The position numbers were made by a program, and so were the translations under genes. From Roseiflexaceae bacterium (lineage in GTDB: Bacteria; Chloroflexota; Chloroflexia; Chloroflexales; Roseiflexaceae): a DNA stretch of 38,973 nucleotides. How positions within the stretch are numbered: position 1 is the stretch's first letter; each line of letters begins with the position of its first letter. The stretch covers positions 1 through 38,973 of the forward strand of contig DASTWM010000095.1 in the NCBI GenBank assembly GCA_035765855.1, in the 5' to 3' direction. The notes beneath the pieces are model-generated. The model was not told where the DNA came from. It ran no database searches and saw nothing but the letters and a program-made list of their open reading frames with translations. Shown here piece after piece: positions 5,552 to 18,200 of this stretch.

Positions 5552-7468
5552 ATGGGTGGACACAAGGTTACGCGTCGGGATTTCCTACGATTTGCGACTG
5601 TCAGCGGCGCAGGGTTGATCATTGCGGCGTGTGGCGGTACGACCGAGGCTCCGCAGCCGCCAGCCGCCAATCAAAGTGGCGGCGAGGCCGCTACCGCAGC
5701 CCCGCAGACAGCGGCGGAAGCAACGACTGCTCCTGAGGCAACCGCTGCTGATGCCAGCGCGCCCACTGCGGCGGCGGCAACCCCAACCCGCGAAGTGCCG
5801 CGCGGCCAGGCGAAGGATGTGGCCCGCGAGAAGAGCCTTATCCTCATGTGGTCGATTAGCGCGAATGAGGTCGGCGTCGGCAACCCCTATGTCGCAGGCC
5901 ACAACCACCAGAGCGGCACCATGGCGATGTGGGAACCGCTCTACTTCTACTCGGCATACGCCGACAAAACGATCCCATGGTTGGCCGATGGCGATCCGCA
6001 GTACAACGCGGACTTCACCGAAGTCACCATTCCGATCCGCAAGGGCGTCGAGTGGAGCGATGGGCAGCCGTTTACCGCAAGTGACGTTGCCTTTACGCTG
6101 AATGCCCTGCGGAAGGATGAGAACGCCGCAGCGCCGTACGCCGCCGACATGAAGAAGTGGGTCAAGGACGCCAGCGCGCCGGATGCGAACACGATAAAGA
6201 TCAGCTTCAACCAGCAGGCACCGCGCTTCGTGTTCGACTTCTTCGATTATAAATTTGACCTTGGCCTCTTCATTCTGCCCGAGCATATCTTTAAGGATGA
6301 GAAAGACCTCGTCAGCAGCCTGTTCTACGACCCGGCCAAGGGCTGGCCGGTAACAACCGGACCATACAAGGTCGTTGACTGGACGCCACAGCAGAAGCTG
6401 ATGGACGTGCGGCAAGATTGGTGGGGTGCCAAGACCGGCTTCCAGCAGTTGCCAAAGATCGAGCGCATTGTCGTCGTGCCATTCCCCACTGGTGATGCAA
6501 CACCAGCCGCGCAGGCGATGATCAATAATGAGATCGACACCAGCCTAGATCTGCGCCCGCCAGTGATCAAGACGGTTGTCGAGCAGAATCCAAAGGTTAT
6601 CACGCATTCGGGCCGCCAGGCACCGTATGGCTACACCGACTGGTGGGCGAACTCGCTGTGGATTAACTGCTCGACAGATCCCTACACCGACCCGGAAATT
6701 CGGCAGGCCATGAACTATCTGATCGATCGCCAGCAGCTTGTTGAGATCGGCTACGAGGGCGCTGGCTCGGCGACCGACCTGCCGTTCCCGGCGTTCCCGT
6801 CGCTCCAGAAGTATTTCGATGCCGCCAAGCCACTGCTTGAAAAGTACCCAACCAGCGCGACTGATCCCGCCAAGACCGAAGAGATCATGACCAAGAAGGG
6901 CTACACCAGAAATGGCGATGGCCTGTGGGTCAGCCAGGATGGCAAGAAGATCGACGCGACGATCTACGGTTTTGATATTATGGCGGACTACGGCCCGGTA
7001 CTGGCCGAGCAGTTGCGCAACGGTGGCTTCGACGCATCGTTCCAGGCTCCGCCCGACTCCTATGACCGCATGGCAAACGGATCAGCCAACACGTTTGTGT
7101 TCGGTCATGGCGGCGCAATCGCCGACGTGTACCCGACGCTCGACCTGTTCCACAGCCGCCATATCAAGCCGACTGGCACGGCTGGCGACATCAGCCCGCG
7201 CTGGAAGAACGACGAGTACGACAAGATTGTGGACCAGATGGCGCTGTTGCCGGTCGGCGATCCGAAGGGCATGCCGCTCTACCTGCAAGCGCTTGAAATC
7301 TACCTGAAGGAGAAGCCAGAGTTGCCGGTTGTGCAGTGGTACCACCGCATCCCCATGAACACAACCTACTGGACTAACTGGCCAACGGCGGAAAATCCCT
7401 ACGTCAATGGTGCGTTCTGGCACAAGACGTTTCTCCTCATGCTGACAAATCTACAGCCAGCAAAGTAA
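5552..7468 (+). CDS. ABC transporter substrate-binding protein, family 5 (Opp/Dpp-like), TAT-exported lipoprotein
   Basis: It has an RRDFLRF twin-arginine motif, an IIAAC lipobox, an Ala/Thr/Pro-rich linker and an SBP_bac_5-like body. An AGGAGG Shine-Dalgarno lies upstream. Confidence 0.9.
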   Translation: MGGHKVTRRDFLRFATVSGAGLIIAACGGTTEAPQPPAANQSGGEAATAAPQTAAEATTAPEATAADASAPTAAAATPTREVPRGQAKDVAREKSLILMWSISANEVGVGNPYVAGHNHQSGTMAMWEPLYFYSAYADKTIPWLADGDPQYNADFTEVTIPIRKGVEWSDGQPFTASDVAFTLNALRKDENAAAPYAADMKKWVKDASAPDANTIKISFNQQAPRFVFDFFDYKFDLGLFILPEHIFKDEKDLVSSLFYDPAKGWPVTTGPYKVVDWTPQQKLMDVRQDWWGAKTGFQQLPKIERIVVVPFPTGDATPAAQAMINNEIDTSLDLRPPVIKTVVEQNPKVITHSGRQAPYGYTDWWANSLWINCSTDPYTDPEIRQAMNYLIDRQQLVEIGYEGAGSATDLPFPAFPSLQKYFDAAKPLLEKYPTSATDPAKTEEIMTKKGYTRNGDGLWVSQDGKKIDATIYGFDIMADYGPVLAEQLRNGGFDASFQAPPDSYDRMANGSANTFVFGHGGAIADVYPTLDLFHSRHIKPTGTAGDISPRWKNDEYDKIVDQMALLPVGDPKGMPLYLQALEIYLKEKPELPVVQWYHRIPMNTTYWTNWPTAENPYVNGAFWHKTFLLMLTNLQPAK

Positions 7469-7480
7469 ACTCCTGAATTT

Positions 7481-7512
7481 CAGCAGGTGCCATGGCTTCA
7501 TGGCACCTGCTG
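7481..7512 (+). other. Perfect 13-bp-stem hairpin CAGCAGGTGCCAT-ggcttc-ATGGCACCTGCTG, 13 nt after the substrate-binding-protein stop
   Basis: Seen directly in the sequence. No U-tract follows. It looks like an intercistronic stabiliser or partial terminator between the substrate-binding-protein gene and the permease genes. Confidence 0.5.
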
Positions 7513-7616
7513 AGGTATCGTAAGCGTTTGAACGAGGGAAAAGGAGATCGAGAGGTGGGCTGGCACTGTTGCGCTGCATCGGAATAAGCCCCCGGTACAA
7601 GAAAGAAGGGAGACTC

Positions 7617-8621
7617 ATGTCAGTAGGATATTTAGTGCGGCGTGTTTTTCTGCTGCTGCTCGTGGTTTGGACAGCAGCAACGATCAATTTCTTTGTTCCC
7701 AAGCTTAGCCCGCGAAATCCTGTGCTTGAACGGCTGCAGGAAGCATCGCGCGGCGGCGGGCGGCAACAGACCGGCTTGCAGGAAATGATGAAAGCCTACC
7801 AAGCCCAATTCGGGTTGGACAAGCCATTGTGGGAACAATATGTCAACTACATGAGCGGTGTTGTGCGGCTTGATTTTGGCTACTCGATCAACGCATATCC
7901 CAAGAAGGCCATGGATGTGATTGCCGAGGCCTTGCCCTGGACGATTGGCCTCGCAACCGTTGCGACTATCCTGGCCTTTTTTATTGGCACCATCCTTGGC
8001 GCGCTGATTGCGTGGCCGCGCGCGCCGCGTTTTTTCCGCTCGCTCATTCCTCCGCTTATGATGTTTCAGGCCATGCCCTTTTATCTCCTTGGTCTGATTC
8101 TGATCTATATTTTTGCCTTCAAGTTCCGCATTTTGCCACTTGGCGGCGGCTTTTCGCGCGGGGCCGTTCCGCGCTGGAACCTTACGTTCGCGCTTGATCT
8201 GGTGAAGCATGCTGTTTTGCCAGCTTTAGCGATCATTCTTTCATCGCTTGGCGGCTGGGCGCTCGGCATGCGCGGCCTCATGGTATCGATTCAAGGCGAA
8301 GATTTTATCACCTTCGCCGAGGCGAAAGGGCTGAAATCATCGCGCATCTTTACCCGCTATGCCATGCGTAATGCTATGTTGCCGCAAATCACCGCGTTGC
8401 TGCCGAGTTTAGGCTTTATCATCATCGGCACAAGCCTGGTAGAGATTATCTTTGGGTATCCGGGGCTTGGCACCGTCATCAGTCAGGCAATCAACAGTCT
8501 GGACTATTTTGTCATTTATGCAATTACCGTTATCCTGACCATCGTGATTTGTATCGCAACCCTTATCATGGATTTGACCTACCCGCTACTTGATCCGCGT
8601 ATTAAATACGAGCGAGGCTAA
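7617..8621 (+). CDS. ABC transporter permease (DppB/OppB-like)
   Basis: It is a BPD_transp_1 multi-transmembrane protein. The start MSVGYLV is preceded by GAAGGGAG. Confidence 0.9.
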   Translation: MSVGYLVRRVFLLLLVVWTAATINFFVPKLSPRNPVLERLQEASRGGGRQQTGLQEMMKAYQAQFGLDKPLWEQYVNYMSGVVRLDFGYSINAYPKKAMDVIAEALPWTIGLATVATILAFFIGTILGALIAWPRAPRFFRSLIPPLMMFQAMPFYLLGLILIYIFAFKFRILPLGGGFSRGAVPRWNLTFALDLVKHAVLPALAIILSSLGGWALGMRGLMVSIQGEDFITFAEAKGLKSSRIFTRYAMRNAMLPQITALLPSLGFIIIGTSLVEIIFGYPGLGTVISQAINSLDYFVIYAITVILTIVICIATLIMDLTYPLLDPRIKYERG

Positions 8622-8622
8622 T

Positions 8623-9531
8623 ATGGCAACACTTGCTGGAACTGCTGCACCGGCGGCAAGCGCTGCAGGACCAGGCCGCTTAACGCGCTTCTTCCGCTAT
8701 GCGCGCCGAAATCCGGCCTTTGGCATCGGGTTGATTATTCTGATCACACTGGTGCTTTTCTCAACAGTGGGCATGTTGTTCATCGATCTGAGAAAAGCGC
8801 CCTACCCGCTCGGAACGCCACCCAGCAAACCGCCGTCCTGGCAGTATCCATTCGGGACCGATGCCCAGGGACGCAATCTGATCGCGGTGATGATCGTCGG
8901 CACGCAGTTGACGCTGCGGGTCGGGCTCATGGCCGGCGCGATTGGTATCGCCGTTGGAACCATTCTGGGGTTTGTGTCGGCCTACTACGGCGGCTTCCTC
9001 GACGGAGTGGTCAAGTGGATCGTCGACGTCATGCTCACGATTCCCGCGTTCCTCATCCTGGTGGTGATCGCTTCGACGCTGCGCAATTTCCTCACGGTTG
9101 AGAGCATGGCCCTGATTATTGCGGTTCTGGCGTGGGTCGGCCCAACGCGCATGATTCGCGCCCAGGTGCTTACCTTACGCGAACGCCAGTTTGTGCTCAT
9201 GGCACGGCTTTCTGGCATGAATAACATCGAGATCATGTTCAAGGAGTTGCTGCCGAACGTGCTGCCGTATCTGCTGGCCGGATTCGTGCAGTCCGTCACT
9301 GCGGCGATTCTGACCGCGCTTGGCCTTGAGTTGCTGGGACTCGGGTCGCAGCGCGAGCCAACGCTCGGCATGACGATTTACTGGGTTCAGAAGTATTCAG
9401 CCATTTTGCGCGGCCTGTGGTGGTGGTGGACCATTCCGGTTATCATCATTGTGCTGCTGGTTGTCTCTCTGGCGTTAATTTCGTTGGGCTTGGACGAATG
9501 GTCGAACCCCCGCACACGGAGGGCAGCGTGA
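8623..9531 (+). CDS. ABC transporter permease (DppC/OppC-like)
   Basis: It is a multi-transmembrane permease. The ATG at 8623 follows a GAGG Shine-Dalgarno. The six-frame ORF begins earlier, inside the upstream gene. Confidence 0.85.
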   Translation: MATLAGTAAPAASAAGPGRLTRFFRYARRNPAFGIGLIILITLVLFSTVGMLFIDLRKAPYPLGTPPSKPPSWQYPFGTDAQGRNLIAVMIVGTQLTLRVGLMAGAIGIAVGTILGFVSAYYGGFLDGVVKWIVDVMLTIPAFLILVVIASTLRNFLTVESMALIIAVLAWVGPTRMIRAQVLTLRERQFVLMARLSGMNNIEIMFKELLPNVLPYLLAGFVQSVTAAILTALGLELLGLGSQREPTLGMTIYWVQKYSAILRGLWWWWTIPVIIIVLLVVSLALISLGLDEWSNPRTRRAA

Positions 9532-10499
9532 GCGATCAACTATTACAAGTTCGGGATTTGCTGGTTCAGTATCATACTGATCGCGGCGTTGTCAAAGCGG
9601 TGAACGGAGTCAGTTTTGATCTCCAGCCCGGCGAACGGCTCGGCCTTGTTGGGGAGTCCGGCTCCGGCAAATCGACCATGGCGCTGGCGCTGATGCGCAT
9701 GATTAAAGCGCCAGGTCGCGTTGCAGGCGGCCAGATTTTGTTGCACGGACAAGATTTGCTCGCCCTTTCTGAAGAGCAGATGCGCAAAGTTCGCGGCGCT
9801 AAAATCAGCATGGTGCCGCAGGGCGCGATGAACTCGCTCAACCCGGTGGCGCGCATCAAAGATCAGATCATCGACACGATGAAAGATCATGATATGAGCA
9901 TGTCCAAGACTCAGATGGAGGAGCGCGCGGCTCAGGTGCTCGAAATGGTGGACCTGAAGCGCGAGGTTGGCAGGATGTACCCGCATGAGCTGAGCGGCGG
10001 CATGAAGCAGCGCGTCTGCATCGCCATCGCGGTCGCAATGCGGCCCGATGTGATCATTGCCGACGAGCCAACCAGCGCGCTCGACGTGGTCGTGCAGCGC
10101 CAGGTCATGGAAACCTTTGGCAAGCTGCAAGACCTGATGGGCGTGGCAATCATCCTGATCGGCCACGACATGGGCCTCATGGCGCAGTTCGTCGATCGGC
10201 TTGCGGTGATGTACGCCGGCCAGTTTGCCGACCTCAGCCCGATTCGTGAAACGTTCAGCGAACCACTGCATCCATACACACAAATGCTCATCAACAGCCT
10301 GCCAAGCCTGGATGTTAAAGGCGAACTGAAAGGCATTACTGGATTACCGCCTTCATTGCTGAAGCTGCCATCAGGATGTGTGTTTCATCCGCGCTGCCCC
10401 AGCGTGATGGAGCGTTGCACAAAACAGGTGCCGATGTATCAGGAAGTGCGGCCACAACGCTGGGTCGCTTGTCATCTGTACGATGAGGTTAAGCCATGA
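9528..10499 (+). CDS. ABC transporter ATP-binding protein (DppD/OppD-like) with a C-terminal oligopeptide-type extension
   Basis: It has Walker A GESGSGKST, the signature LSGGMKQRV and Walker B IIADEPTSALD. A GTG start at 9528 follows GGAGGG and overlaps the upstream stop. Confidence 0.85.
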   Translation: MSDQLLQVRDLLVQYHTDRGVVKAVNGVSFDLQPGERLGLVGESGSGKSTMALALMRMIKAPGRVAGGQILLHGQDLLALSEEQMRKVRGAKISMVPQGAMNSLNPVARIKDQIIDTMKDHDMSMSKTQMEERAAQVLEMVDLKREVGRMYPHELSGGMKQRVCIAIAVAMRPDVIIADEPTSALDVVVQRQVMETFGKLQDLMGVAIILIGHDMGLMAQFVDRLAVMYAGQFADLSPIRETFSEPLHPYTQMLINSLPSLDVKGELKGITGLPPSLLKLPSGCVFHPRCPSVMERCTKQVPMYQEVRPQRWVACHLYDEVKP

Positions 10500-11386
10500 C
10501 ACCCATTATGGAATTACGCAACGTCACGAAGGTGTACGGCAGCAGCGGGCTCCTGGCGAAAAAGGGAACTGCCGCGCTGAAGAGCATGAATTTGGCACTC
10601 GAAGCTGACGATCCGTCGATCCTTGCGGTGGTCGGCGAGAGCGGCAGCGGTAAGAGCACGCTTGCTTCGCTTATTCTGGGTTTCATTTCGGCAACTGAAG
10701 GCGAGGTGTTGTATAACGGTAAGGATGTGAAGCGGCTTTCCAATGCCGAGCGACAGGTCTACCGGCGCGAAGTGCAAGCTATTTTTCAGGATCCATTTGC
10801 CGTGTACAACCCGTTCTATCGCGTCGATCATGTGCTTAACGTTCCGCTCAGCAAATTCAAACTTGCGCGCACGAAGGCCGAAGCGCAGCGCATGATGGAG
10901 GAGGCGCTCAGCGCGGTCGGCCTGCGGCCCGAGGAAACCCTTGGCCGCTATCCGCACCAGCTCAGCGGCGGGCAGCGGCAGCGCATTGTCGTGGCGCGCG
11001 CGCTGATGCTGAAGCCGAAGCTCATTATTGCTGACGAGCCGGTTTCCATGGTGGATGCATCGCTACGGGCGACGATTCTTGAGAGCCTGCGCACGCTCAA
11101 CAAGGATCTGCGCATCCCTGTTGTCTACATTACCCACGATCTGGCGACCGCATACCATGTGAGCGACCAGATTGTCGTGCTGTTTCGCGGCGAGGTCGTC
11201 GAGTCGGGCGAGACCGAGACTGTTATCAAGAATCCGCAGCACTCCTATACCAAGCTGCTGATCGACTCGATTCCATGGCCGGACCCAGAGCGCCGCTGGG
11301 GACAAACGAAGGAAGAATTCGAGCAGGAGTTGCATTCTGTCGCGCGGCAGGCTACCGCCAGTGGCAGCCGCTGGATGCCAGAGTAA
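10496..11386 (+). CDS. ABC transporter ATP-binding protein (DppF/OppF-like)
   Basis: It has Walker A GESGSGKST, the signature LSGGQRQRI and Walker B IIADEPVSMVD. An ATGA overlap with the upstream gene suggests translational coupling. Confidence 0.9.
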   Translation: MTPIMELRNVTKVYGSSGLLAKKGTAALKSMNLALEADDPSILAVVGESGSGKSTLASLILGFISATEGEVLYNGKDVKRLSNAERQVYRREVQAIFQDPFAVYNPFYRVDHVLNVPLSKFKLARTKAEAQRMMEEALSAVGLRPEETLGRYPHQLSGGQRQRIVVARALMLKPKLIIADEPVSMVDASLRATILESLRTLNKDLRIPVVYITHDLATAYHVSDQIVVLFRGEVVESGETETVIKNPQHSYTKLLIDSIPWPDPERRWGQTKEEFEQELHSVARQATASGSRWMPE

Positions 11387-11506
11387 TCCTGCGAAAACTG
11401 TTTCCTGATGTACAATACAGCCTATGAAGAACTGCTGACATCGTCTTCATGGGCTGTATCATTTTCAGGTCGCCAGCCGCGCCTCGAAAGCGTTGCATTG
11501 CTCACT

Positions 11507-11851
11507 ATGCTGCGTATGCGCCGGATGTTCGCCATTATGCTGCTTACAAGCCTCATGGTGCTGGTTCTCGGCTGTGGCGGCATGGCGGCCGCTCTGCACC
11601 AGGGCTTGCTCATGCCCCTCGCATTCGATGCCCGCGTTGGCCCGCTGCACATCGTGACGCACGCGCCGCGCGCAATTCAATGCCCGCAAAGCACCAATTG
11701 GTCAGCCAGAGAATGCGCGCATTATCAGGCTGATTTCACAGCAGCGCCGCGCAACTACCGCGTGTGGGTGTTTGTCAATCAGCAGCAGCACGGCCAACCT
11801 GCCGCGCGCCTGCTCATGCAGCTACAGTTGCCGCTCCGCGCGTCCTCATAG
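11507..11851 (+). CDS. Hypothetical small lipoprotein (uncertain)
   Basis: It has a signal-peptide-like N-terminus MLRMRRMFAIMLLTSLMVLVLGC with an LGC lipobox. The mature part is Cys/His-rich. GC3 is typical only downstream of ~11500. There is no clear Shine-Dalgarno. Its stop abuts the stop of the convergent ATPase gene. Confidence 0.3.
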   Translation: MLRMRRMFAIMLLTSLMVLVLGCGGMAAALHQGLLMPLAFDARVGPLHIVTHAPRAIQCPQSTNWSARECAHYQADFTAAPRNYRVWVFVNQQQHGQPAARLLMQLQLPLRASS

Positions 11852-12568
11852 CGCTTGTTCCTCGACCATCTCAACGAGTTGGCCGTCCTCCATGTGGTAG
11901 GTAATGTCGGCGAATGCGCGCGTGGAAGGATCATGGGTGGTCATGACCAGCGTCACGCCGGTGGAGCGAACGATGTCGCGCAAGAGGTGCAGAATCGCGC
12001 GGCCAGTGGTGGAGTCGAGCTGGCCGGTCGGCTCGTCTGCGAGCAGCAACTGCGGGCGCGAGACCAGCGCGCGGGCGATGGCAACGCGCTGCTGCTGGCC
12101 GCCGCTCATCTCCGGCGGGCGGTGCGTAGCCCACGCGCCGATGCCCACGAGTTCGGCCACCTCATTCACGCGCGCGGCGCGCTCATGGCGCGGCAGCGAG
12201 CCATTGATGCGCAGCGGCACCTCGATATTTTCCCATGCGGTCAGAATGGGCAGCAGCGCGAACGATTGAAAGATAAAGCCGAGCCGCTCGCGCCGCAGTC
12301 TGGTGAGTTGTTCCTGACTCAGCGCGTTCAATGGCTGCCCAAACAACTCGACATTGCCGCTGGTGGCCTGATCCAGCCCGCCCAGAATATTCAGCAGGGT
12401 GGTTTTGCCAGAACCAGAGCGGCCTTCGAGCGTCACGAACGTGCCGGACTGCACGGCCAGGCTGACACCGCGCAGCGCGTTCACGGGCTTGCCGCCAGCG
12501 TGGTAGGTGCGCGCGAGATTCGTGATGCGCACGGCAGGGGCTTCAGATTGCATGGGTGTGTATGTCAT
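11846..12568 (-). CDS. ABC transporter ATP-binding protein (MacB/LolD/FtsE-type nucleotide-binding domain)
   Basis: It has Walker A GRSGSGKTT, the signature MSGGQQQRVAIARAL, Walker B LLLADEPTGQLD and H-loop LVMTTHD. Its start overlaps the upstream stop as ATGA. Confidence 0.9.
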   Translation of the reverse strand: MTYTPMQSEAPAVRITNLARTYHAGGKPVNALRGVSLAVQSGTFVTLEGRSGSGKTTLLNILGGLDQATSGNVELFGQPLNALSQEQLTRLRRERLGFIFQSFALLPILTAWENIEVPLRINGSLPRHERAARVNEVAELVGIGAWATHRPPEMSGGQQQRVAIARALVSRPQLLLADEPTGQLDSTTGRAILHLLRDIVRSTGVTLVMTTHDPSTRAFADITYHMEDGQLVEMVEEQAL

Positions 12569-13464
12569 GGTACGTGTTCGTCATCGGCGGGCCGCAGCAG
12601 CAGGCCGTCGGGGCGTTCTTCAAAAACCACGCGCCGCGCGAATCCATAGCGCTCGCGCAGCGCCTTCGGCAGTTGCACCCGCCCGGCTGCGTCCATCAGC
12701 ATGCTTTCTTCAAGATGCTCGATGACCACTGGCGCAGCAGAATCTGCTCCGTCGCCGTTCAGGCGGCGCTTGCGGCGGGTTTCGCTGGCGGTGCGGCCAT
12801 CGTGGATCATCACTACCCGGTCGACATGCGTGGTGATGTGCGGATCGTGCGAGACAATCACGACCGTCAAGCCAAATGTCTGGCTTAAGGTGTGGAACAG
12901 GTCGAAGATCGTCGACGCCGTGCCGGTGTCAAGTTCGCCGGTTGGCTCATCGGCCAGCAGCAGCCGAGGCCGGTTGGCGAGCGCAATGGCGATGGCGACG
13001 CGCTGCTGCTCGCCGCCGGAAAGCTCCGCGAGGCGATGCCCGGCGCGATCCGTCAGCCCGACCGCTTCAATCAGCTCGCGCATCCATGCCCGGCGCGCGC
13101 GCCCACCAACTCCTTGCAGCATCATGGGCAGCGCGATCTGCTGTTCAATCGTGAGATAGGGAATGAGGTTGCGGGCCTTTTGCTGCCACACAAAGCCAAC
13201 CACCCGCGAACGATAATGATCGAGCGCGCGGTCGGACATCTGGCGCAAATCATTGCCTGCGACGAGCACGCGCCCGCTCGACGGTCGATCCAGACCGCCC
13301 AGAATATTCAGCAGCGTAGTCTTGCCGGAGCCGCTTGCGCCGACAAGCGCCAGCACTTCCGCTGGCTGCACAGCTAAATCAACGCCTTGCAGCGCAACAA
13401 CCTCGATCTCGTCGAGTTCGTAGATTTTGATGAGATTATCACAGACGATCAATGGGTCTGACAT
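12565..13464 (-). CDS. ABC transporter ATP-binding protein fused to a C-terminal AbrB/SpoVT/MazE-like swapped-hairpin domain
   Basis: It has Walker A GASGSGKTT, the signature LSGGEQQRVAIAIAL, Walker B LLLADEPTGELD and H-loop VVIVSHD. The C-terminal ~45 aa (MDAAGRVQLPKALRERYGFARRVVFEERPDGLLLRP) matches the GRVxIPKxIRExxG..D-G-L-L-RP pattern of SpoVT/AbrB domains. I chose the start at MSDPLIV (ATG 13464). The ORF's N-terminal extension is Arg-rich and unlikely to be real. Confidence 0.85.
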   Translation of the reverse strand: MSDPLIVCDNLIKIYELDEIEVVALQGVDLAVQPAEVLALVGASGSGKTTLLNILGGLDRPSSGRVLVAGNDLRQMSDRALDHYRSRVVGFVWQQKARNLIPYLTIEQQIALPMMLQGVGGRARRAWMRELIEAVGLTDRAGHRLAELSGGEQQRVAIAIALANRPRLLLADEPTGELDTGTASTIFDLFHTLSQTFGLTVVIVSHDPHITTHVDRVVMIHDGRTASETRRKRRLNGDGADSAAPVVIEHLEESMLMDAAGRVQLPKALRERYGFARRVVFEERPDGLLLRPADDEHVP

Positions 13465-13560
13465 GGGAAGGTTCCGTTGCATACAGCGGCGTACCGACGG
13501 GCGACGAGCAAGCCAGCCGCGCCTGCTCCTTCTGCGGTGCGTTGTTCGACACAACCTTTA

Positions 13561-13663
13561 CCATCATACCACAAGTCACAGTTAAACTAACTACGATGCA
13601 GGACGGTTTTTGGCGCGGCACCAGACGCAGGCGACTTGACCACAAGCACATTCGCAAGTATGA
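13561..13663. promoter_or_regulatory. Divergent promoter region. The plus-strand promoter is TTGACC(13635-40)-N17-TATGAT(13658-63). The minus-strand promoter is an extended -10 TGgTATGAT (plus coordinates 13561-13572). A direct repeat ACCACAAG(T)CACA at 13568-13580 and 13638-13649 overlaps both.
   Basis: Seen directly in the sequence. A second extended -10 (TGaTATAAT, 13760-13768) lies closer to the lipoprotein ATG. Confidence 0.4.
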
Positions 13664-13825
13664 TAGTGCCAGTATAAACGTTATAGATTTTTGACTTTTG
13701 AAACCCTCGAGAGCTGTAACCCCTCTGCACAATACCGCATACGAAGCCCATCCATAGCCTGATATAATCATCCATGGCGCGTGATGAACCGTGTGCCTGT
13801 TTGTGCAGCGAAATAGGAGACATGA

Positions 13826-15340
13826 ATGGTACATCGCTACGGCGCGAGTGTCCGAGCAACGCTTGCTCTGTGCGCCTGCATGGTGCTTGTGGCGGGCTGT
13901 GGTTCGATTGCAAGCTCCTCCGCGCAGGAGTTGCCGACATTTCCACCCCTGGAAGTCGAGCCAGCAGCCGCGCATGCTGCCCCGACGCCACGCCCCGGCC
14001 AGCCGCAGCCCACGGTTGCGCCCGAGCCGACCGCTGTACTCGGCGAGCCGAAATCGCTGCGCGAAGACATCCGGATTCGCAAGGTGCTGGAGACTGGCGG
14101 CGGTTTTGTGCGCCTGAAGCACGATCCAAAGAGCGACGAATTGTATTACATGGATGACAAGGTAAATATTTACCGGCTCGATCCAGCGGGCAGTGATGAC
14201 GATAAAGGAACGCCCGTCTTTACGCGCGCTGATGTCGGCGTTGAGAAGCAGTTTACCAGCCAGGGTTTGGCGTTCGGCCCGGATGGCACACTCTATGTTC
14301 TCGGAAATATCAACGACAAGATCACCACCCACGCGATTATTCGCAAAGGCGTGGCAGATGCATCCGGCAAACGAACATGGACGACGCTTGCCGAAACCGC
14401 GCCGTACCAAAAGAGCAACACGCAGTTCGATCACGTCTGCAACGGTATCGTCGTCAGCCCCGACGGGCGCTACCTGTACATGAACAGCGGCTCGCGCACC
14501 GATCATGGCGAAGTGCAGGCCACCAAGGGCGCGTTTCCCGACGCGCGCGAGGTGCCGCTTACATCGGCAATCTTCCGCATTCCGACTGATACGGACAACC
14601 AGGTGCTGCCCAACGACGAAGCACAACTGAAGGAAAAGGGCTATCTGTTTGCCGATGGCACGCGCAATTCCTTCGACCCTGCGTTTGCGCCGAATGGCGA
14701 CCTGTTTGCCGGCGACAATGGGCCGGATGCTGACTTTCCCGATGAGCTGAACTGGCTGCGCGAGGGACATCATTATGGTTTTCCATGGCGCTTCGGCAAT
14801 TACGACAATCCGCAACAATTCCCCGATTACGATCCGTCGAAGGATGGCCGACTCCAGCAAGAGTTCTTCGCCGTCAGCAATCACTTTTACGCCAACGATC
14901 CGACCTTCCCGCCACCACCGCCGGGCGTGACTTTTACCGACCCGGTCGCTAATCTCGGCCCGGACGCCAACATCGTCCGCGATGCCGATGGTAGCGCGCA
15001 CCGGGCGAGCGACCTTGGCGAAGCAGCATACAGTTTTACCCCGCACCGTTCGCCGCTCGGGCTGGTGTTCGATGCAGCCGGGGCCGTCGGCGGCGGGCTG
15101 ACGGGTGACGGCTTTATTCTGAGTTGGGGCGCGGCTGCCGGTCATCTGCCCGATCAAGGGCGCGACCTGATTGACATCAAGCTCACCAAAGTGCAGGACG
15201 CGTATCAGGCCAAGATGACGCAACTCGTCGTCGGATTTGATCATTCCATCGATGCCGTGCTTGTGCAAAACCGGCTGTATGTGCTGGACAACGGCGGCAA
15301 AGGGACGATCTGGGAAGTCACGTTACCGAAACATGGCTAG
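13826..15340 (+). CDS. Secreted lipoprotein with a PQQ-dependent sugar dehydrogenase (GSDH/YliI-family)-like beta-propeller
   Basis: It has a signal peptide with an LVAGC lipobox, then a Pro-rich linker. The propeller has blade motifs GLAFGPDGTLYV and GIVVSPDGRYLY and the family hallmark DGTRNSFDPAFAPNGDLFAGDNGPDADFPDELNWLREGHHYGFPW (compare YliI GHRNPQG..GP..DEINLI..G.NYGWP). An AGGAGA Shine-Dalgarno lies 7 nt before the ATG. Confidence 0.8.
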   Translation: MVHRYGASVRATLALCACMVLVAGCGSIASSSAQELPTFPPLEVEPAAAHAAPTPRPGQPQPTVAPEPTAVLGEPKSLREDIRIRKVLETGGGFVRLKHDPKSDELYYMDDKVNIYRLDPAGSDDDKGTPVFTRADVGVEKQFTSQGLAFGPDGTLYVLGNINDKITTHAIIRKGVADASGKRTWTTLAETAPYQKSNTQFDHVCNGIVVSPDGRYLYMNSGSRTDHGEVQATKGAFPDAREVPLTSAIFRIPTDTDNQVLPNDEAQLKEKGYLFADGTRNSFDPAFAPNGDLFAGDNGPDADFPDELNWLREGHHYGFPWRFGNYDNPQQFPDYDPSKDGRLQQEFFAVSNHFYANDPTFPPPPPGVTFTDPVANLGPDANIVRDADGSAHRASDLGEAAYSFTPHRSPLGLVFDAAGAVGGGLTGDGFILSWGAAAGHLPDQGRDLIDIKLTKVQDAYQAKMTQLVVGFDHSIDAVLVQNRLYVLDNGGKGTIWEVTLPKHG

Positions 15341-18200
15341 CGAACCAACAACTGAAAGCATCACGAATCCTACCGTCACGACATCCGACGCCGAGCACTG
15401 GTCGTTCGGACTGAACTGGCTCAGCAGCATCGTCGGCCTGGTGCAGATCGTTGCATTGCGCATCTGGAGCAACCTGCGGCTCATGCTCGCTATCCTGGCT
15501 GGCATGATCGTCGCTGTCGCGCTCGTGAGCAGCATTCCGGTGTACGCCGAAGCGGTTGGCTACCGCGTTTTACGTGATGAGTACGCGCAGAACACGTTTG
15601 CGAATGTGCTGCGCTTCGATTTTTTGTACCGCTACCTCGGAGCGCAGGGCGGCCTCACGGTCGCGCAGTACAATAAACTGAACGATTATTTCAACCAGCA
15701 GGCACCCGGCACGATCGACCTGCCAGTGCTCATGCGCGGGCGCTACATTTCATCCGACAAGCGCTCGCTCATGCCACCCGGCGGCGATAGCCCGGCGGTC
15801 ACGTCGGTCAACCTGGCCTTCAGCGATGGACTGGCGGACCATATTCAGATCACAGATGGTGGCTGGCCGCGTACCACGTCAAGCGGCCCGATTGAAGTAT
15901 TAATGACGGGAGCGCTCGCCAGGCAACTCAAGGCAGTGGTCGGGCAGGAGTTTTTCGTCGTTGACTCGCAAGATAACCCGAGCGGCAATGGTGTTACCAT
16001 TCGCGTCGCGGGCATCTGGCAGCCGAAAAACCCTGCCGAGCCATTCTGGTTCTACTCGGAGATGAAAGCGGATACCGTTCTCTATGTTCCGCTGGAGAGT
16101 TATACCAGACGGCTGCTGACCCGCGAACCACGAATGATCACCGTCGCGTTGTGGTATCTCTCTGACGATGGCCGCGTTATTCGCTCGGCGGCGGTGCCTG
16201 CGGTGCAGGCGCACATCGACGAGGGCATCCGCGAGTTCGAGGCGCTGCTGCCCGGCGTGCAGTTAGATGTCTCGCCGGGCGGCGTGCTCGCGCGCCATCA
16301 GGAACGCGTGCAAAGCCTCACAACCTCGCTGACGCTGTTTAGCCTGCCGCTGCTTGGCCTGGTGGCCTATTTCGTGATCCTGGTTGCTGGCCTCGTCGTG
16401 CAGCGCCAGAGCAACGAGATCGCCGTGCTGCGCAGCCGTGGCGTGTCGCGGCTGCAAATCCTTGACATTTACCTGCTCGAAGGCGTGCTGCTCGGCCTGC
16501 TGGCGCTTGGCCCCGGCTTATTGCTCGGTCTCGGCGCGGCGCTGCTCATGACATGGGTACAATCCTTCCTGGTGCTCCAGCCGGTCAGCGATCTGCCGAT
16601 TGAATTGACGCCTGCGGCATGGCAGCGCGCCGGACAGGTGCTGCTGCTGCTGATCGTCGCCAGCCTGATTCCGGCGTTCGGCGCGGCCAACTACACGATT
16701 GTTTCGTACAAAAGCGCGCGCGACCGCCTGACACGCGGGCCGCTCTGGCAGCGCATGTGGCTCGATCTCATTCTGCTCGTCGTGGTCGCGTATGGGTTCT
16801 GGCAATTGACGCGCAATGGCACCGTGACGGTGTTCGGCGTCGAGGCAGCGACCGGCGATCCATTTACCAGCCCGCTGCTGCTGCTCGCGCCGACGCTGTA
16901 CATCGTGGTGCTTGGCATGGTCAGCCTGCGCATTTTCCCGATTGTCATCACGGCGCTCACATGGCTCTCGGATCGGCTGCGCGGCATTGTGGTGGTGACG
17001 GCGCTGCGCTATCTTGCCCGCACGTCGCGCGCCTACATCGGGCCGGTGCTGCTGCTCGTACTGACGCTCAGTTTGTCGATCTTCACCGCGTCCATGGCTG
17101 GCACGGTCGATCGCCAACTCTTTGATCAGATCTACTACGCCACTGGCGGCGACATGCCGATTACTGATCGTGGGCAGCCAGCCGACGGTGGGAAATTATC
17201 GTTTGTGCCGCTTGAGAAGTACGCGCAGATTCCGGGCGTCAACGGTCTAACGCAGGTGGTACAGAGTCCCGCCGAGGTGCCGATATCCAACGGCAGCGTT
17301 CAGGCACAGTTCCTCGGCATCGACCGGACGACCTTTGCCAGTGTCGCTCGGTGGCGACCCGACTATGCCGACGCGCCGCTCGATCAATTAATGCAGCGGC
17401 TCGCTTCTGCCCAACAAAACGTACTGATTAGCAGCGCGTTGCGCGACCAGCAGGGGCTACAGATTGGCGACCACATGACGCTGAAGTTGTACGGCGGCAC
17501 GGGCGGTTTCGATCTGCCGGTGGTCGTCGCGGGCGTCGTCAATCTTTTTCCAACCGTCTATCCCGAGGATGGCCCGTTCATTATCGGCAATCTGCCGTAT
17601 GTGTTCAGCAAAGCCGGCGGGCCGTACTCGTACGATGTCTGGCTGAAACTCAGCGACAATGCCGCGCGCACGGATGTGGAAACCGGGCTGCGCAACGCTG
17701 GCATTGATTTTATCGAGCGCGGCTACGCGCCCAAGGACATCGTGGCCGAGCGCGGGCGGCCCGAACGTCAGGGGCTGTTTGGGCTGCTCTCGGTCGGCTT
17801 TGTCGCGTCGGCCTTTCTGACGGTGCTCGGCTTCCTGTTTTACGCGGTGTTGTCGTTCCAGCGGCGCTTCATCGAATTTGGCATGCTGCGCGCGATTGGG
17901 CTATCATCACGGCAACTCGGCGCGCTGCTGGCATGCGAGCAGGCGCTGATCATTGGCATCGGCGCGCTTGCGGGAACGGTGATTGGCGTCAGCGCCAGCT
18001 ACCTGTTCATTCCATTCATGCAGGTGCGGGCGGAAAAGCATGCGCTGACGCCGCCATTTCTGGTCGAGATTGCATGGCTGCGCATTGCGATTATTTATGT
18101 CGTGTTCGGCGTCATGTTGCTGTGCGCCGTTTCGATTACCCTGCTGCTGCTACGCCGGATGAAGCTGTTCCAGGCCGTGAAGCTGGGCGAGACGGTGTAG
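15333..18200 (+). CDS. Large ABC transporter permease with two FtsX/MacB-type domains. It has ~10 transmembrane helices and large extracytoplasmic domains.
   Basis: There are two copies of the FtsX hallmark (EIAVLRSRGVSRLQI and FGMLRAIGLSSRQL), each followed by transmembrane bundles. A ~280-aa extracytoplasmic domain follows transmembrane helix 1. The ATG at 15333 overlaps the upstream TAG (ATGGCTAG), so it is translationally coupled to the lipoprotein. Confidence 0.85.
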   Translation: MASEPTTESITNPTVTTSDAEHWSFGLNWLSSIVGLVQIVALRIWSNLRLMLAILAGMIVAVALVSSIPVYAEAVGYRVLRDEYAQNTFANVLRFDFLYRYLGAQGGLTVAQYNKLNDYFNQQAPGTIDLPVLMRGRYISSDKRSLMPPGGDSPAVTSVNLAFSDGLADHIQITDGGWPRTTSSGPIEVLMTGALARQLKAVVGQEFFVVDSQDNPSGNGVTIRVAGIWQPKNPAEPFWFYSEMKADTVLYVPLESYTRRLLTREPRMITVALWYLSDDGRVIRSAAVPAVQAHIDEGIREFEALLPGVQLDVSPGGVLARHQERVQSLTTSLTLFSLPLLGLVAYFVILVAGLVVQRQSNEIAVLRSRGVSRLQILDIYLLEGVLLGLLALGPGLLLGLGAALLMTWVQSFLVLQPVSDLPIELTPAAWQRAGQVLLLLIVASLIPAFGAANYTIVSYKSARDRLTRGPLWQRMWLDLILLVVVAYGFWQLTRNGTVTVFGVEAATGDPFTSPLLLLAPTLYIVVLGMVSLRIFPIVITALTWLSDRLRGIVVVTALRYLARTSRAYIGPVLLLVLTLSLSIFTASMAGTVDRQLFDQIYYATGGDMPITDRGQPADGGKLSFVPLEKYAQIPGVNGLTQVVQSPAEVPISNGSVQAQFLGIDRTTFASVARWRPDYADAPLDQLMQRLASAQQNVLISSALRDQQGLQIGDHMTLKLYGGTGGFDLPVVVAGVVNLFPTVYPEDGPFIIGNLPYVFSKAGGPYSYDVWLKLSDNAARTDVETGLRNAGIDFIERGYAPKDIVAERGRPERQGLFGLLSVGFVASAFLTVLGFLFYAVLSFQRRFIEFGMLRAIGLSSRQLGALLACEQALIIGIGALAGTVIGVSASYLFIPFMQVRAEKHALTPPFLVEIAWLRIAIIYVVFGVMLLCAVSITLLLLRRMKLFQAVKLGETV

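Follow-up and report, generated by a model that had tools for sequence, protein, structure and literature searches.

An AbrB/MazE/MraZ-type swapped-hairpin domain at the C terminus of one ATPase of a two-ATPase, MacB-type pump in Chloroflexota

Accessory domains on ABC ATPases are a known route for throttling transporters. The textbook examples, the TOBE domains of MalK and ModC and the C2 domain of MetN, belong to importers, and these regulatory domains are located on both ATPase subunits and pair within one transporter. TOBE, the C2/NIL ACT-like domain of MetN, the CBS domains of OpuA, and oligo_HPY of the Opp/Dpp systems are all located behind the final strand of the nucleotide-binding domain. 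The ATPase described here, NBD1, likewise carries an extra domain at this position, the “tail,” and its role is probably modulatory rather than catalytic. It differs from the known domains by its fold, by its presence on one of two unlike ATPases of a MacB-type pump, and by its long flexible tether. Since only one of two unlike subunits carries the tail, the textbook pairing within a single transporter is impossible.

The fold points to the swapped-hairpin superfamily (PF04014/PF02381) of the N-terminal domains of AbrB and SpoVT, of MazE, of AbrB-type VapB, and of MraZ. To our knowledge, this fold has been seen elsewhere only in antitoxins and in regulators that bind DNA, and every characterized swapped-hairpin domain of the AbrB type binds DNA. 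Such domains are described as DNA binders, and in MraZ the DxxxR motif contacts the bases, with the Asp holding the Arg (PMC12957436). The tail, in contrast, is a C-terminal appendage of a membrane-pump ATPase and not a free small regulator.

The pump shares with MacAB, YknXYZ, LolCDE, and YbbAP the type VII character, the FtsX-type permease, and the YknX_C/CzcB_C-type adaptor. It differs from them by two distinct ATPase genes and a single permease of ~960 aa with two FtsX units, by the AbrB-like tail, which was found in none of their solved structures when compared by sequence, and by NBD1 scores far under the equivalog cut-offs of LolD, MacB, and FtsE. No paper describing an AbrB-tailed pump ATPase was found in the literature on AbrB or swapped-hairpin domains in connection with ABC ATPases or MacB.

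Gene organization and distribution of the tailed ATPase

The window is the whole stretch of DNA that was analyzed, 38,973 nucleotides from a Roseiflexaceae bacterium. The relevant features are, in order of position:

11846..12568, minus strand: NBD2, second ABC ATPase, 240 aa, without tail (PF00005, E = 2.4e-33; DevA/LolD/MacB-type)
12565..12585, minus strand: six-residue C-terminal stub DDEHVP of NBD1 with its stop codon, the latter overlapping the start of NBD2 (ATGA)
12586..12720, minus strand: AbrB/MazE/MraZ-type swapped-hairpin domain, NBD1 residues 249-293, as assigned by profile and predicted structure
12721..12768, minus strand: hypervariable flexible linker, NBD1 residues 233-248, as judged by entropy, length spread, and pLDDT
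12769..13464, minus strand: NBD1 core, complete MacB/LolD/FtsE-type ABC nucleotide-binding domain, residues 1-232 (PF00005, NCBIfam, motifs)
13465..13825, no strand: intergenic region from which NBD1 on one side and the GSDH-like and permease genes on the other diverge, proposed by the initial annotation as operator
13826..15340, plus strand: secreted GSDH-like beta-propeller protein (PF07995, E = 5.9e-10; lipobox-like N terminus ...LVAGCGS)
15333..18200, plus strand: double-FtsX (MacB-type) permease, ~955 aa (PF02687 in two stretches, weak LolC/E match)

The NBD1 gene (12565..13464, minus strand) encodes a MacB/LolD-type ABC ATPase of 299 aa. Its ATG start codon at 13464 is backed by ortholog alignments, which gave no support to the TTG at 13554 chosen by the ORF lister. 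The core matched PF00005 with E = 1.5e-32 and contains Walker A GASGSGKT (residues 42-49, with G42 to K48), the Q-loop Q94, the signature LSGGEQ (148-153, with S149 to Q153), Walker B LLLADE (168-173, with D172/E173), and the H-loop H206, all of which show no or almost no variation across 106 orthologs. The top NCBIfam models were LolD, YbbA, MacB, and FtsE, each under its equivalog cut-off, with 210.7 bits and a cut-off of 307.75 in the case of LolD (TIGR02211); the DevA model likewise stayed under its cut-off. LolD, MacB, MJ0796, YbbA, YtrE, BceA, and FtsE are the nearest solved single-domain ATPases, and in the sequence comparison no solved ABC ATPase aligned past NBD1 residue ~240.

The combination of an ABC ATPase with this tail is present in at least 465 species genomes, as found by a genome scan with an 11-sequence tail alignment (a 52-sequence version was too diverse) and confirmed with one strict pattern. 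Of the 80 loci inspected, almost all belong to Chloroflexota; Thermobaculum terrenum (P0101; locus L002) is a cultivated species among the carriers. The usual operon encodes adaptor, double-FtsX permease, NBD1 with tail, and NBD2, co-directional in nearly all 80 loci and with NBD1 in third position. In each of these 80 related loci, the tail is on the first of the two ATPase genes, and NBD2, translationally coupled to NBD1, follows directly in essentially all of them. Permease orthologs of ~950-1000 aa adjoin NBD1, and the adaptors possess YknX_C/CzcB_C-type domains.

An FtsX-type permease is found in the window as well as in the related loci, and the one at 15333..18200, the start of which was taken from a 954-aa gene call in the relative L003, serves the NBD1/NBD2 pair as membrane partner. 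The GSDH-like gene sits in the operon slot that is occupied by the membrane-fusion or adaptor protein in other species. A divergent arrangement occurs only in the window and in the 93%-identical L003, and L070 is divergent, too. The lineage of the window is a derived variant with a lost C-terminal helix, a GSDH-like lipoprotein in place of the adaptor, and an inverted ATPase pair.

Some proteins contain the tail between two fused ATPase domains (P0018, P0045, P0091, P0098, P0112, P0256, and L063), and P0064 is a two-ATPase fusion without any tail. P0254, a lone case on a 4-kb contig, is composed of ATPase, tail, and a large membrane domain without Pfam match, and was for these reasons left out of the evidence. 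P0170 is a stand-alone close relative of 60 aa, which keeps the hallmark residues without an ABC partner and is located beside SSB and HTH genes in a context resembling a mobile element. It is the only convincing free-standing case; the other short hits of this kind were nearly all ATPase fragments at contig edges or with wrong starts. A search with the tail hidden Markov model (HMM) of 86 loci plus the window found no second half-barrel copy in any ORF of at least 40 aa, and no complementing half-barrel in NBD2, permease, or adaptor. There was also no conserved toxin gene near the tailed NBD1 in the 80 loci, the downstream gene being always the second ABC ATPase. This sets the tail apart from the MazE and VapB antitoxins and rules out its reading as a type II antitoxin of the MazE, VapB, or PrlF type.

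Fold and conservation of the tail

Positions 12565-12720 comprise the final 51 codons plus stop of NBD1 and read ...EHLEESMLMDAAGRVQLPKALRERYGFARRVVFEERPDGLLLRPADDEHVP. The tail is composed of beta1 (EHLEESMLM), a DxxGR loop with D258, G261, and R262, a helix (PKALRERYG), and a hairpin (RRVVFEE-RPDG-LLLRP). When searched alone, it matched PF04014 (E = 0.0014, 19.0 bits) and the MraZ family PF02381 (E = 0.003, 17.9 bits) and no other Pfam family, with both scores under the gathering cut-offs of 24.7 and 23, respectively. Ortholog tails matched these two families in 18 of 23 and 19 of 23 cases at E ≤ 1 (best E = 1.4e-6), again without any other family. Typical tails of the family score 21 to 23.5 bits. 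As most members narrowly miss the 24.7 bits of Pfam, surveys of domain architecture that rely on Pfam hardly register this design. A word-indexed search with the tail alone recovered only the fragment of the window itself, and the full-length protein was used instead.

The predicted secondary structure is strand-loop-helix-strand-strand. In the AlphaFold model of full-length NBD1 (pLDDT 85.4), a strand at 248-255, a helix at 267-273, and strands at 279-284 and 287-292 were predicted, and the model of the tail alone (pLDDT 84.6) contained the same helix and hairpin, with beta1 and beta2 not formed in this monomer. The models agree with a beta1-beta2-alpha-beta3-beta4 unit of ~45-50 residues as in the superfamily, and the structure search showed three-dimensional similarity to solved SpoVT/AbrB members. 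AbrB ranked first in Foldseek against the PDB, although so short a query kept its E value above 0.1. A comparison of the tail profile with PDB sequences returned AbrB and SpoVT at E of ~0.23-0.27, which is not significant and was mixed with chance matches, the SRP54 “DTAGRLQ” hits among them. The assignment is settled at the level of predicted models by the structure search, not by sequence alone, and the tail with this architecture is very probably an AbrB/MazE/MraZ-type swapped-hairpin half-barrel.

TOBE, NIL/ACT, CBS, and oligo_HPY gave no Pfam match in the C-terminal region of NBD1 even at E ≤ 10, which rules out a TOBE, ACT, or CBS reading; the neighboring Opp-type ATPase at 10496-11386 does have oligo_HPY. 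The initial annotation had described a catalytically complete NBD1 that, alone among two ATPases, carries an AbrB/MazE-type tail unlike TOBE and C2/ACT, and had quoted letters that match the NBD1 translation at 12565-12720. These statements were borne out by the intact motifs in 106 orthologs, the uniform position in 80 loci, the PF04014/PF02381 matches of window and orthologs together with the predicted structure, and the lack of a counterpart in solved ABC ATPases. The expected match to PF04014 was present, but its score remained under the cut-off.

Profile matches in 18 to 19 of 23 ortholog tails and the presence of the tail in every full-length ortholog examined speak against a chance resemblance or a species-specific low-complexity sequence. 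The idea of the initial annotation withstood both of the refuting conditions named there, the lack of a significant AbrB/MazE profile match and a tail not conserved in orthologs. The tail is conserved nearly as strongly as the catalytic core. The adjoining linker, in contrast, is hypervariable, with a majority fraction of 0.29, an entropy of 3.07 bits, a length of 10-28 aa (median, 17; 106 orthologs), and a pLDDT under 50 at residues 235-247. Strong purifying selection acts on this tail design, which is ancient. D258, G261, and R262 are invariant (106 of 106 orthologs; D258-A-A-G261-R262 in the window), and this DxxxR loop is the most invariant segment of the tail. R270, at the position of R23 in AbrB, is near-invariant, and the consensus PKEIR at the start of the helix is presumably SpoVT-like. 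The tail differs from the AbrB superfamily, besides its scores of 19 to 23.5 bits, by a Glu at the position of AbrB R24 (97 of 106 tails), a hydrophobic residue at that of R8, conserved E252/E253 on beta1, and an acidic character. Its net charge has a median of −2 in the family, and the tail of the window, at +1, is the most basic of all. Charged surface residues are conserved at E253, R270, E271, R278, E282, and R291. In the lineage of the window, the tail diverged faster than the core, with 53% and 71% identity, respectively, to other orthologs.

In 103 of 106 orthologs, the six-residue stub is replaced by an extension of ~35 aa (median, 35), a Pro-rich spacer followed by a basic, Trp/Arg-rich amphipathic helix such as GLRGWWARRRRG or KGIKKFLAGLQRRR. 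The net charge of the extension is +4, and its hydrophobic moment is 0.77, compared to 0.60 after shuffling, with 10% of the shuffles being equal or better. Only the window protein and P0004 lack it, and in P0003 it is short, with 12 aa and no basic helix. We take it to resemble the C-terminal amphipathic membrane-targeting helices of the MinD/FtsA type, which are also short, basic, and located behind a spacer; this likeness concerns the extension of the orthologs, not the protein of the window. The helix suggests a location of the tail near the membrane, and it could equally bind protein or nucleic acid.

Upstream regions and the search for an operator

The initial annotation had suggested that the state of the nucleotide-binding-domain dimer may assemble the barrel and thereby couple to DNA binding, with autoregulation of the divergent promoter at 13465-13825, or to protein-protein regulation. 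In this region, the half on the GSDH side is ~90% conserved with L003, and the half proximal to NBD1 has diverged. A sigma-70-like promoter is located at 13636-13664 on the plus strand, and 13440-13850 contains short, imperfect repeats only. Upstream of 55 non-redundant operons, no common operator was found with exact k-mers of 6-10 nt or with inverted or direct dyads; this is weak evidence, given how short and degenerate the sites of AbrB and MraZ are. What these regions had in common were terminator-like T/A runs and an extended −10 element with the sequence TGnTATAAT. The palindrome TGTGAC..TCACA occurs only in Roseiflexus-type loci, where it overlaps the promoter of the operon at its −35 region. 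This is the Roseiflexus-type TGTGACCGYTCWCA promoter. As to a local regulator gene, the short upstream stretches of these operons were uninformative.

The proposed autoregulation was not upheld by these data: divergence is confined to the window, L003, and L070 with the other loci being co-directional, and the only promoter element common to the 55 operons is the extended −10. Nor does the dimer state fit as the cause of barrel assembly. With one tail per heterodimeric ATPase pair and no second copy in 86 loci and the window, closure of NBD1 with NBD2 cannot bring two half-barrels together.

Possible functions of the tail

The preferred reading, with a probability of about 0.4, is that the tail serves as a protein-level pairing, assembly, or regulatory module of the pump, as opposed to regulating the local promoter through a specific operator. 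The pump is a type VII (MacB-like) complex, in which two different ATPases join a single double-FtsX permease, and a fold of this kind closes into a barrel only when two copies interleave. One copy per pump and per operon indicates that the tail would most likely pair with the tail of another NBD1. Such a pairing would connect one pump complex to another, or join NBD1 proteins that are not yet assembled, at the cytoplasmic face of the membrane, where the basic C-terminal helix would hold the tail in most species. In its role, albeit not in its fold, the tail would be comparable to the domains by which MalK, ModC, and MetN are regulated at their C termini. The acidic tail, the replacement of R24 by Glu and of R8 by hydrophobic residues, the lack of a shared operator, and the lineage-specific promoter favor pairing over an operator; the invariance of the DxxxR motif, the conserved R270, and a stand-alone P0170 in a setting typical of small DNA-binding regulators argue against pairing. 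We know of no precedent for two membrane pumps linked via a cytoplasmic tail.

These latter observations would agree with two NBD1 tails forming an AbrB-type barrel on DNA, which is possible if rather doubtful. In that case, the ATPase of the pump would also act as a transcription factor; NBD1 that is idle or unassembled might, for instance, repress the pump operon or other genes until its recruitment to the permease at the membrane relieves this repression. Characterized members of the fold bind DNA, with DxxxR contacting bases in MraZ (PMC12957436), and the net charge of the tail in the window and the lineage-restricted palindrome over the −35 region point in the same direction. A single tail per heterodimeric pump, from which ATPase closure cannot build a barrel, speaks against DNA binding, as do the sole shared −10 element despite invariant putative DNA-reading residues, the restriction of the divergent promoter to one lineage, the mostly acidic tail with its substitutions at R24 and R8 and its E252/E253, the use of the tail as internal linker between fused ATPase domains, and the helix that suggests a near-membrane position. 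That the pump ATPase itself is an AbrB-type DNA binder, the idle or unassembled amount of which sets expression or which tethers a chromosomal site to the membrane, is unlikely.

Docking within one pump is improbable. Here, the tail, together with the extension in most species, would bind either to NBD2 or to the permease at its cytoplasmic face, strands of the partner would complete the half-barrel, and the contact would fix the arrangement of NBD1 and NBD2 on the asymmetric permease or gate the ATPase activity. The tail is always on NBD1 beside the translationally coupled NBD2, natural fusions of NBD1, tail, linker, and NBD2 demonstrate that its C terminus can run straight into NBD2, and the conserved charged residues fit a fixed protein interface. 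Nevertheless, no half-barrel homolog or other complementing element was detected in NBD2, permease, or adaptor, P0170 keeps the hallmark residues without an ABC partner, and a fixed contact within one molecule would not usually involve so long and hypervariable a tether. A functionless relic of an old gene fusion, for instance with an antitoxin-like gene, is highly improbable. The lost extension and the faster divergence of the tail in the lineage of the window and the tail-less P0064 would be in line with it, but retention in at least 465 species genomes, a conservation near that of the catalytic core while the linker drifts, and the lack of a conserved toxin gene nearby are not.

The tail domain is part of a MacB-type exporter, unlike the textbook cases, which are importers. 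Whether the tail couples pump to pump, clamps a single pump, or binds DNA while tethered to the membrane, its role would be something new, either among ABC transporters or among proteins with the AbrB fold. If DNA binding were true, a single polypeptide would link an ABC pump to transcription, and this link would be conserved across the Chloroflexota.

The tailed ATPase and the fold of its C-terminal domain

The interval 12565-12720 closes the minus-strand gene of the ATPase NBD1 at its 3' end, encoding residues 249-299 and the stop codon, and the translation agreed exactly with the tail sequence quoted in the initial annotation. A TTG start, which the ORF lister used for an open reading frame at 12565..13554, was dropped in favor of the ATG indicated by the ortholog alignment.

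Features of the ATPase pair (window coordinates or NBD1 residues, strand)
12565..13464, minus: NBD1 gene with the tail; ATG at 13464 (MSDPLIV...), 299 aa, start from the ortholog alignment
NBD1 residues 1-232, minus: complete ABC nucleotide-binding domain (PF00005, E = 1.5e-32)
11846-12568, minus: NBD2, the second ATPase, 240 aa, without a tail; its start overlaps the NBD1 stop codon (ATGA)

The nucleotide-binding domain had been described as complete, and this agreed with the PF00005 match and with 106 orthologs, in which Walker A, the Q-loop, the LSGGE signature, D172 and E173 of Walker B, and H206 were invariant or nearly so. Judged by its sequence, the core belongs to the LolD/MacB/YbbA/FtsE type, but it scored far under every NCBIfam equivalog cut-off, and NBD1 is therefore no ortholog of any named system. 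The nearest solved single-domain ATPases were LolD, MacB, MJ0796, YbbA, YtrE, BceA, and FtsE, and no sequence match to solved single-domain ATPases extended past NBD1 residue ~240.

The window tail reached 19.0 bits (E = 0.0014) against PF04014 and 17.9 bits (E = 0.003) against PF02381/MraZ, both under the Pfam cut-off, and no further Pfam family was matched. When 23 ortholog tails were scanned singly, 18 matched PF04014 (best E = 1.4e-6) and 19 matched PF02381, again with no third Pfam family. The usual score against PF04014 was 21 to 23.5 bits, slightly short of the 24.7-bit cut-off, which is why the precomputed Pfam lists of more than 100 orthologs contain ABC-related families only. Against PDB sequences, the tail profile found AbrB and SpoVT at a nonsignificant E of ~0.23-0.27. 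In the profile searches of PDB and Pfam, the motif "DTAGRLQ" of the SRP54/FtsY G domain was a chance match to "LDSAGRLQ" of the tail; such matches rank above the true AbrB matches in sequence-only searches and are a trap for automated annotation.

Structure prediction was decisive for the proposed AbrB/MazE-type domain, which was borne out. The full-length AlphaFold model of NBD1 (pLDDT 85.4) was disordered at residues 235-247, followed by a strand (248-255), a helix (267-273), and two further strands (279-284 and 287-292), and a model of the tail only, from 52 sequences, reached a pLDDT of 84.6; in the structure search, the eleventh match was the evolutionarily related Cdc48 N-domain. Foldseek, too, ranked AbrB and SpoVT on top with TM scores of 0.64-0.71, probabilities of 0.95-0.99, and E > 0.1, the latter because the query is short. 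As a predicted structure, the AbrB-type fold is a secure assignment, and by this model, the tail is a true swapped-hairpin half-barrel joined to the core through a flexible tether.

Conservation, distribution, and genomic surroundings

The tail was kept in every full-length ortholog recovered (57-93% identity, 97-100% coverage), so that the initial annotation's alternative of a nonconserved C terminus did not apply. D258, G261, and R262 were present in 106 of 106 sequences, and E253, L257, A260, Q264, P266, R270, E271, Y273, R278, E282, G287, R291, and P292 were conserved in at least 90% of them. The mean majority-residue fraction was 0.84 for the catalytic core, 0.80 for the tail domain, and 0.29 for the linker, which ranged from 10 to 28 residues across orthologs.

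An extension of ~35 residues followed the tail domain in 103 of 106 orthologs (in the Thermobaculum terrenum ortholog, P0101, residues ~295-334). It is made up of a Pro-rich spacer (consensus xVKRLxxPDxPPPxK, with xDxPPxxK conserved) and a basic amphipathic, often Trp-rich helix, for instance, GLRGWWARRRRG or KGIKKFLAGLQRRR; the median net charge of the extension was +4, and its hydrophobic moment was 0.77 versus 0.60 for shuffled sequence. Its ligand could be a membrane, a protein, or a nucleic acid. The helix is absent from the window protein (12565-12585) and its two closest relatives and has been lost in this lineage, where the tail also diverged faster than the core (53% versus 71% identity to other orthologs).

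One genome per species from 185,579 species was scanned with the single pattern [MVL]LD[SQP]AGRLQ[VIL], yielding at least 465 confirmed tail loci, a minimum count, since the pattern misses the variant in the window itself (LMDAAGRVQL). The 80 loci kept were nearly all from Chloroflexota, with a few bins under other names, and included Roseiflexaceae, Chloroflexia, Anaerolineae, Thermoflexales, Ardenticatenaceae, Promineifilaceae, and Thermobaculum. Among 1.84 billion cluster representatives, a profile search detected 753 matches at E <= 0.001, of which 174 reached E <= 1e-10; the short matches were mostly C-terminal pieces of the same ATPases.

The gene order in the 80 loci was adaptor/membrane-fusion protein, double-FtsX permease (~960 aa), NBD1 with the tail, and NBD2, all co-directional wherever the contig permits a view. 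Exceptions were the window and the locus of its 93%-identical relative, L003, with an ATPase pair divergent from a GSDH-like secreted protein and the permease and without an adaptor gene; L070, also divergent; L071, with a different order; and L063, with fused ATPases. Single chains of NBD1, tail, linker, and NBD2 also occurred in six proteins (P0018, P0045, P0091, P0098, P0112, and P0256) and at L063, and one fused two-ATPase protein, P0064, had no tail. The fused protein at L006 7001-8569 lies near GT87 glycosyltransferase and PIN/FitA genes, presumably pointing to an actinobacterial host, and the fused design may reach outside Chloroflexota.

When the tail HMM was applied to all ORFs of 40 aa or more in the window and in every locus, no second copy turned up, in agreement with the earlier observation that only one of the two ATPases carries the tail; hence, there is exactly one half-barrel per operon. 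Every pump has a single half-barrel, carried by NBD1 alone, and this unit is strongly conserved in a MacB-type system that spans the phylum.

Features surrounding the ATPase pair (window coordinates, strand)
5552-11386, plus: importer parts, comprising a 638-aa ORF (SBP_bac_5 in syntenic L003), two permease-sized ORFs, and two ATPases
11408-11851, plus: 147-aa ORF between the Opp-type operon and NBD2, no Pfam match
13636-13664, plus: sigma-70-like promoter
13670-13850, plus: leader of the GSDH-like gene, ~150 nt, ~90% identical to its L003 counterpart
13721-13817, plus: long hairpin in the leader, up to the AGGAG ribosome-binding site (-40.4 kcal/mol, z = -2.74)
13826-15340, plus: GSDH-like beta-propeller protein, 504 aa, PF07995, lipobox-like N terminus (...LVAGCGS)

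The GSDH-like gene fills the operon slot that belongs to the membrane-fusion/adaptor protein in nearly all related loci. Its leader, which matched no Rfam family, could be a cis-regulatory element for this gene and the permease; outside the leader, the intergenic sequence has diverged from that of L003. The Opp/Dpp-type peptide importer operon, with oligo_HPY confirmed on the ATPase at 10496-11386, adjoins the pump ATPases and converges on them, a neighborhood also kept in L003. The 147-aa ORF may be spurious; at the corresponding site, L003 carries a called gene of 111 aa on the other strand.

Possible functions of the tail

It had been proposed that AbrB dimerization couples the dimer state of the nucleotide-binding domains to DNA binding. 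The two ATPases form a heterodimer that has only one tail, so that closure of the nucleotide-binding domains cannot unite two half-barrels. Autoregulation of the divergent promoter at 13465-13825 fared no better: this arrangement is peculiar to the window's lineage, and NBD1 is elsewhere the third gene of a co-directional operon. Upstream of 55 nonredundant operons, the sole over-represented motif was an extended -10 element, ATGGTATAAT, in 11 loci versus at most 4 in shuffles. No common inverted or direct dyad was found there, which is weak evidence because AbrB/MraZ sites are short and degenerate. Six Roseiflexus-type loci (L009, L011, L012, L021, L013, and L017) possess a palindrome, TGTGACCG(C/T)TC(A/T)CA, at the -35 position of the pump operon promoter, ~30-50 nt upstream of the extended -10 element and before the adaptor gene; by sequence, it looks like a lineage-restricted operator. 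The window's intergenic region contained short imperfect repeats only, and its NBD1-proximal half was unconserved even in the 93%-identical relative.

Since two copies are required to complete the fold and the neighborhood encodes no second one, the tail of one NBD1 most likely pairs with that of another NBD1. The C-terminal amphipathic helix would hold the tail near the membrane in most species, and the paired tail may work as a protein-level assembly or regulatory module, with a probability of about 0.4. Alternatively, the tail may form a DNA-binding barrel, making the ATPase double as a regulator, which is possible but doubtful. To our knowledge, every characterized member of the fold binds DNA, and R8, R15, R23, and R24 are important for this in AbrB. 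The most invariant part of the tail is a DxxxR motif (D258-x-x-G261-R262), and in a 2026 MraZ-DNA structure, the SpoVT/AbrB DxxxR loop contacts bases, with Asp positioning Arg (PMC12957436). R270 aligns with R23 of AbrB, highlighted together with R24 as conserved among AbrB proteins (PMC9598496). However, the position of R24 is Glu in 97 of 106 tails, that of R8 is hydrophobic, E252/E253 are conserved on beta1, and the domain is acidic overall (median net charge -2, range -4 to +1). A mobile-element-like setting of a tail relative also fits DNA binding: P0170, a free-standing 60-aa protein (L087 4005-4187), lies mid-contig beside SSB, HTH, and DUF3467 genes. It scored 73.6 bits against the tail profile, as strong as true tails, and may be either the origin of the domain or a copy that escaped.

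The natural NBD1-tail-NBD2 fusions suggest docking inside one pump, onto NBD2 or the permease, which is less probable than DNA binding; a functionless relic is hardly credible given the degree of conservation. Compared to these options, pairing between NBD1 tails is preferred.

A new accessory domain of ABC ATPases

Closest in role are TOBE of MalK/ModC and C2 of MetN, regulatory domains at the C termini of importer ATPases, which in contrast differ in fold, occur on both subunits, and form pairs inside a single transporter. AbrB, SpoVT, MazE, and MraZ are closest in fold, but these are free DNA-binding proteins. Annotation pipelines have already flagged the fusion, since IMG automatic names read [quoted passage not shown] for many orthologs and "AbrB family looped-hinge helix DNA binding protein" for one. 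A literature search found no paper describing or testing an ABC ATPase-AbrB-type fusion, and by sequence, no solved ABC ATPase has such a tail domain. The tail is an accessory C-terminal domain of an ABC ATPase, with a fold that is new to this position, and it would be of greater interest if it binds DNA.
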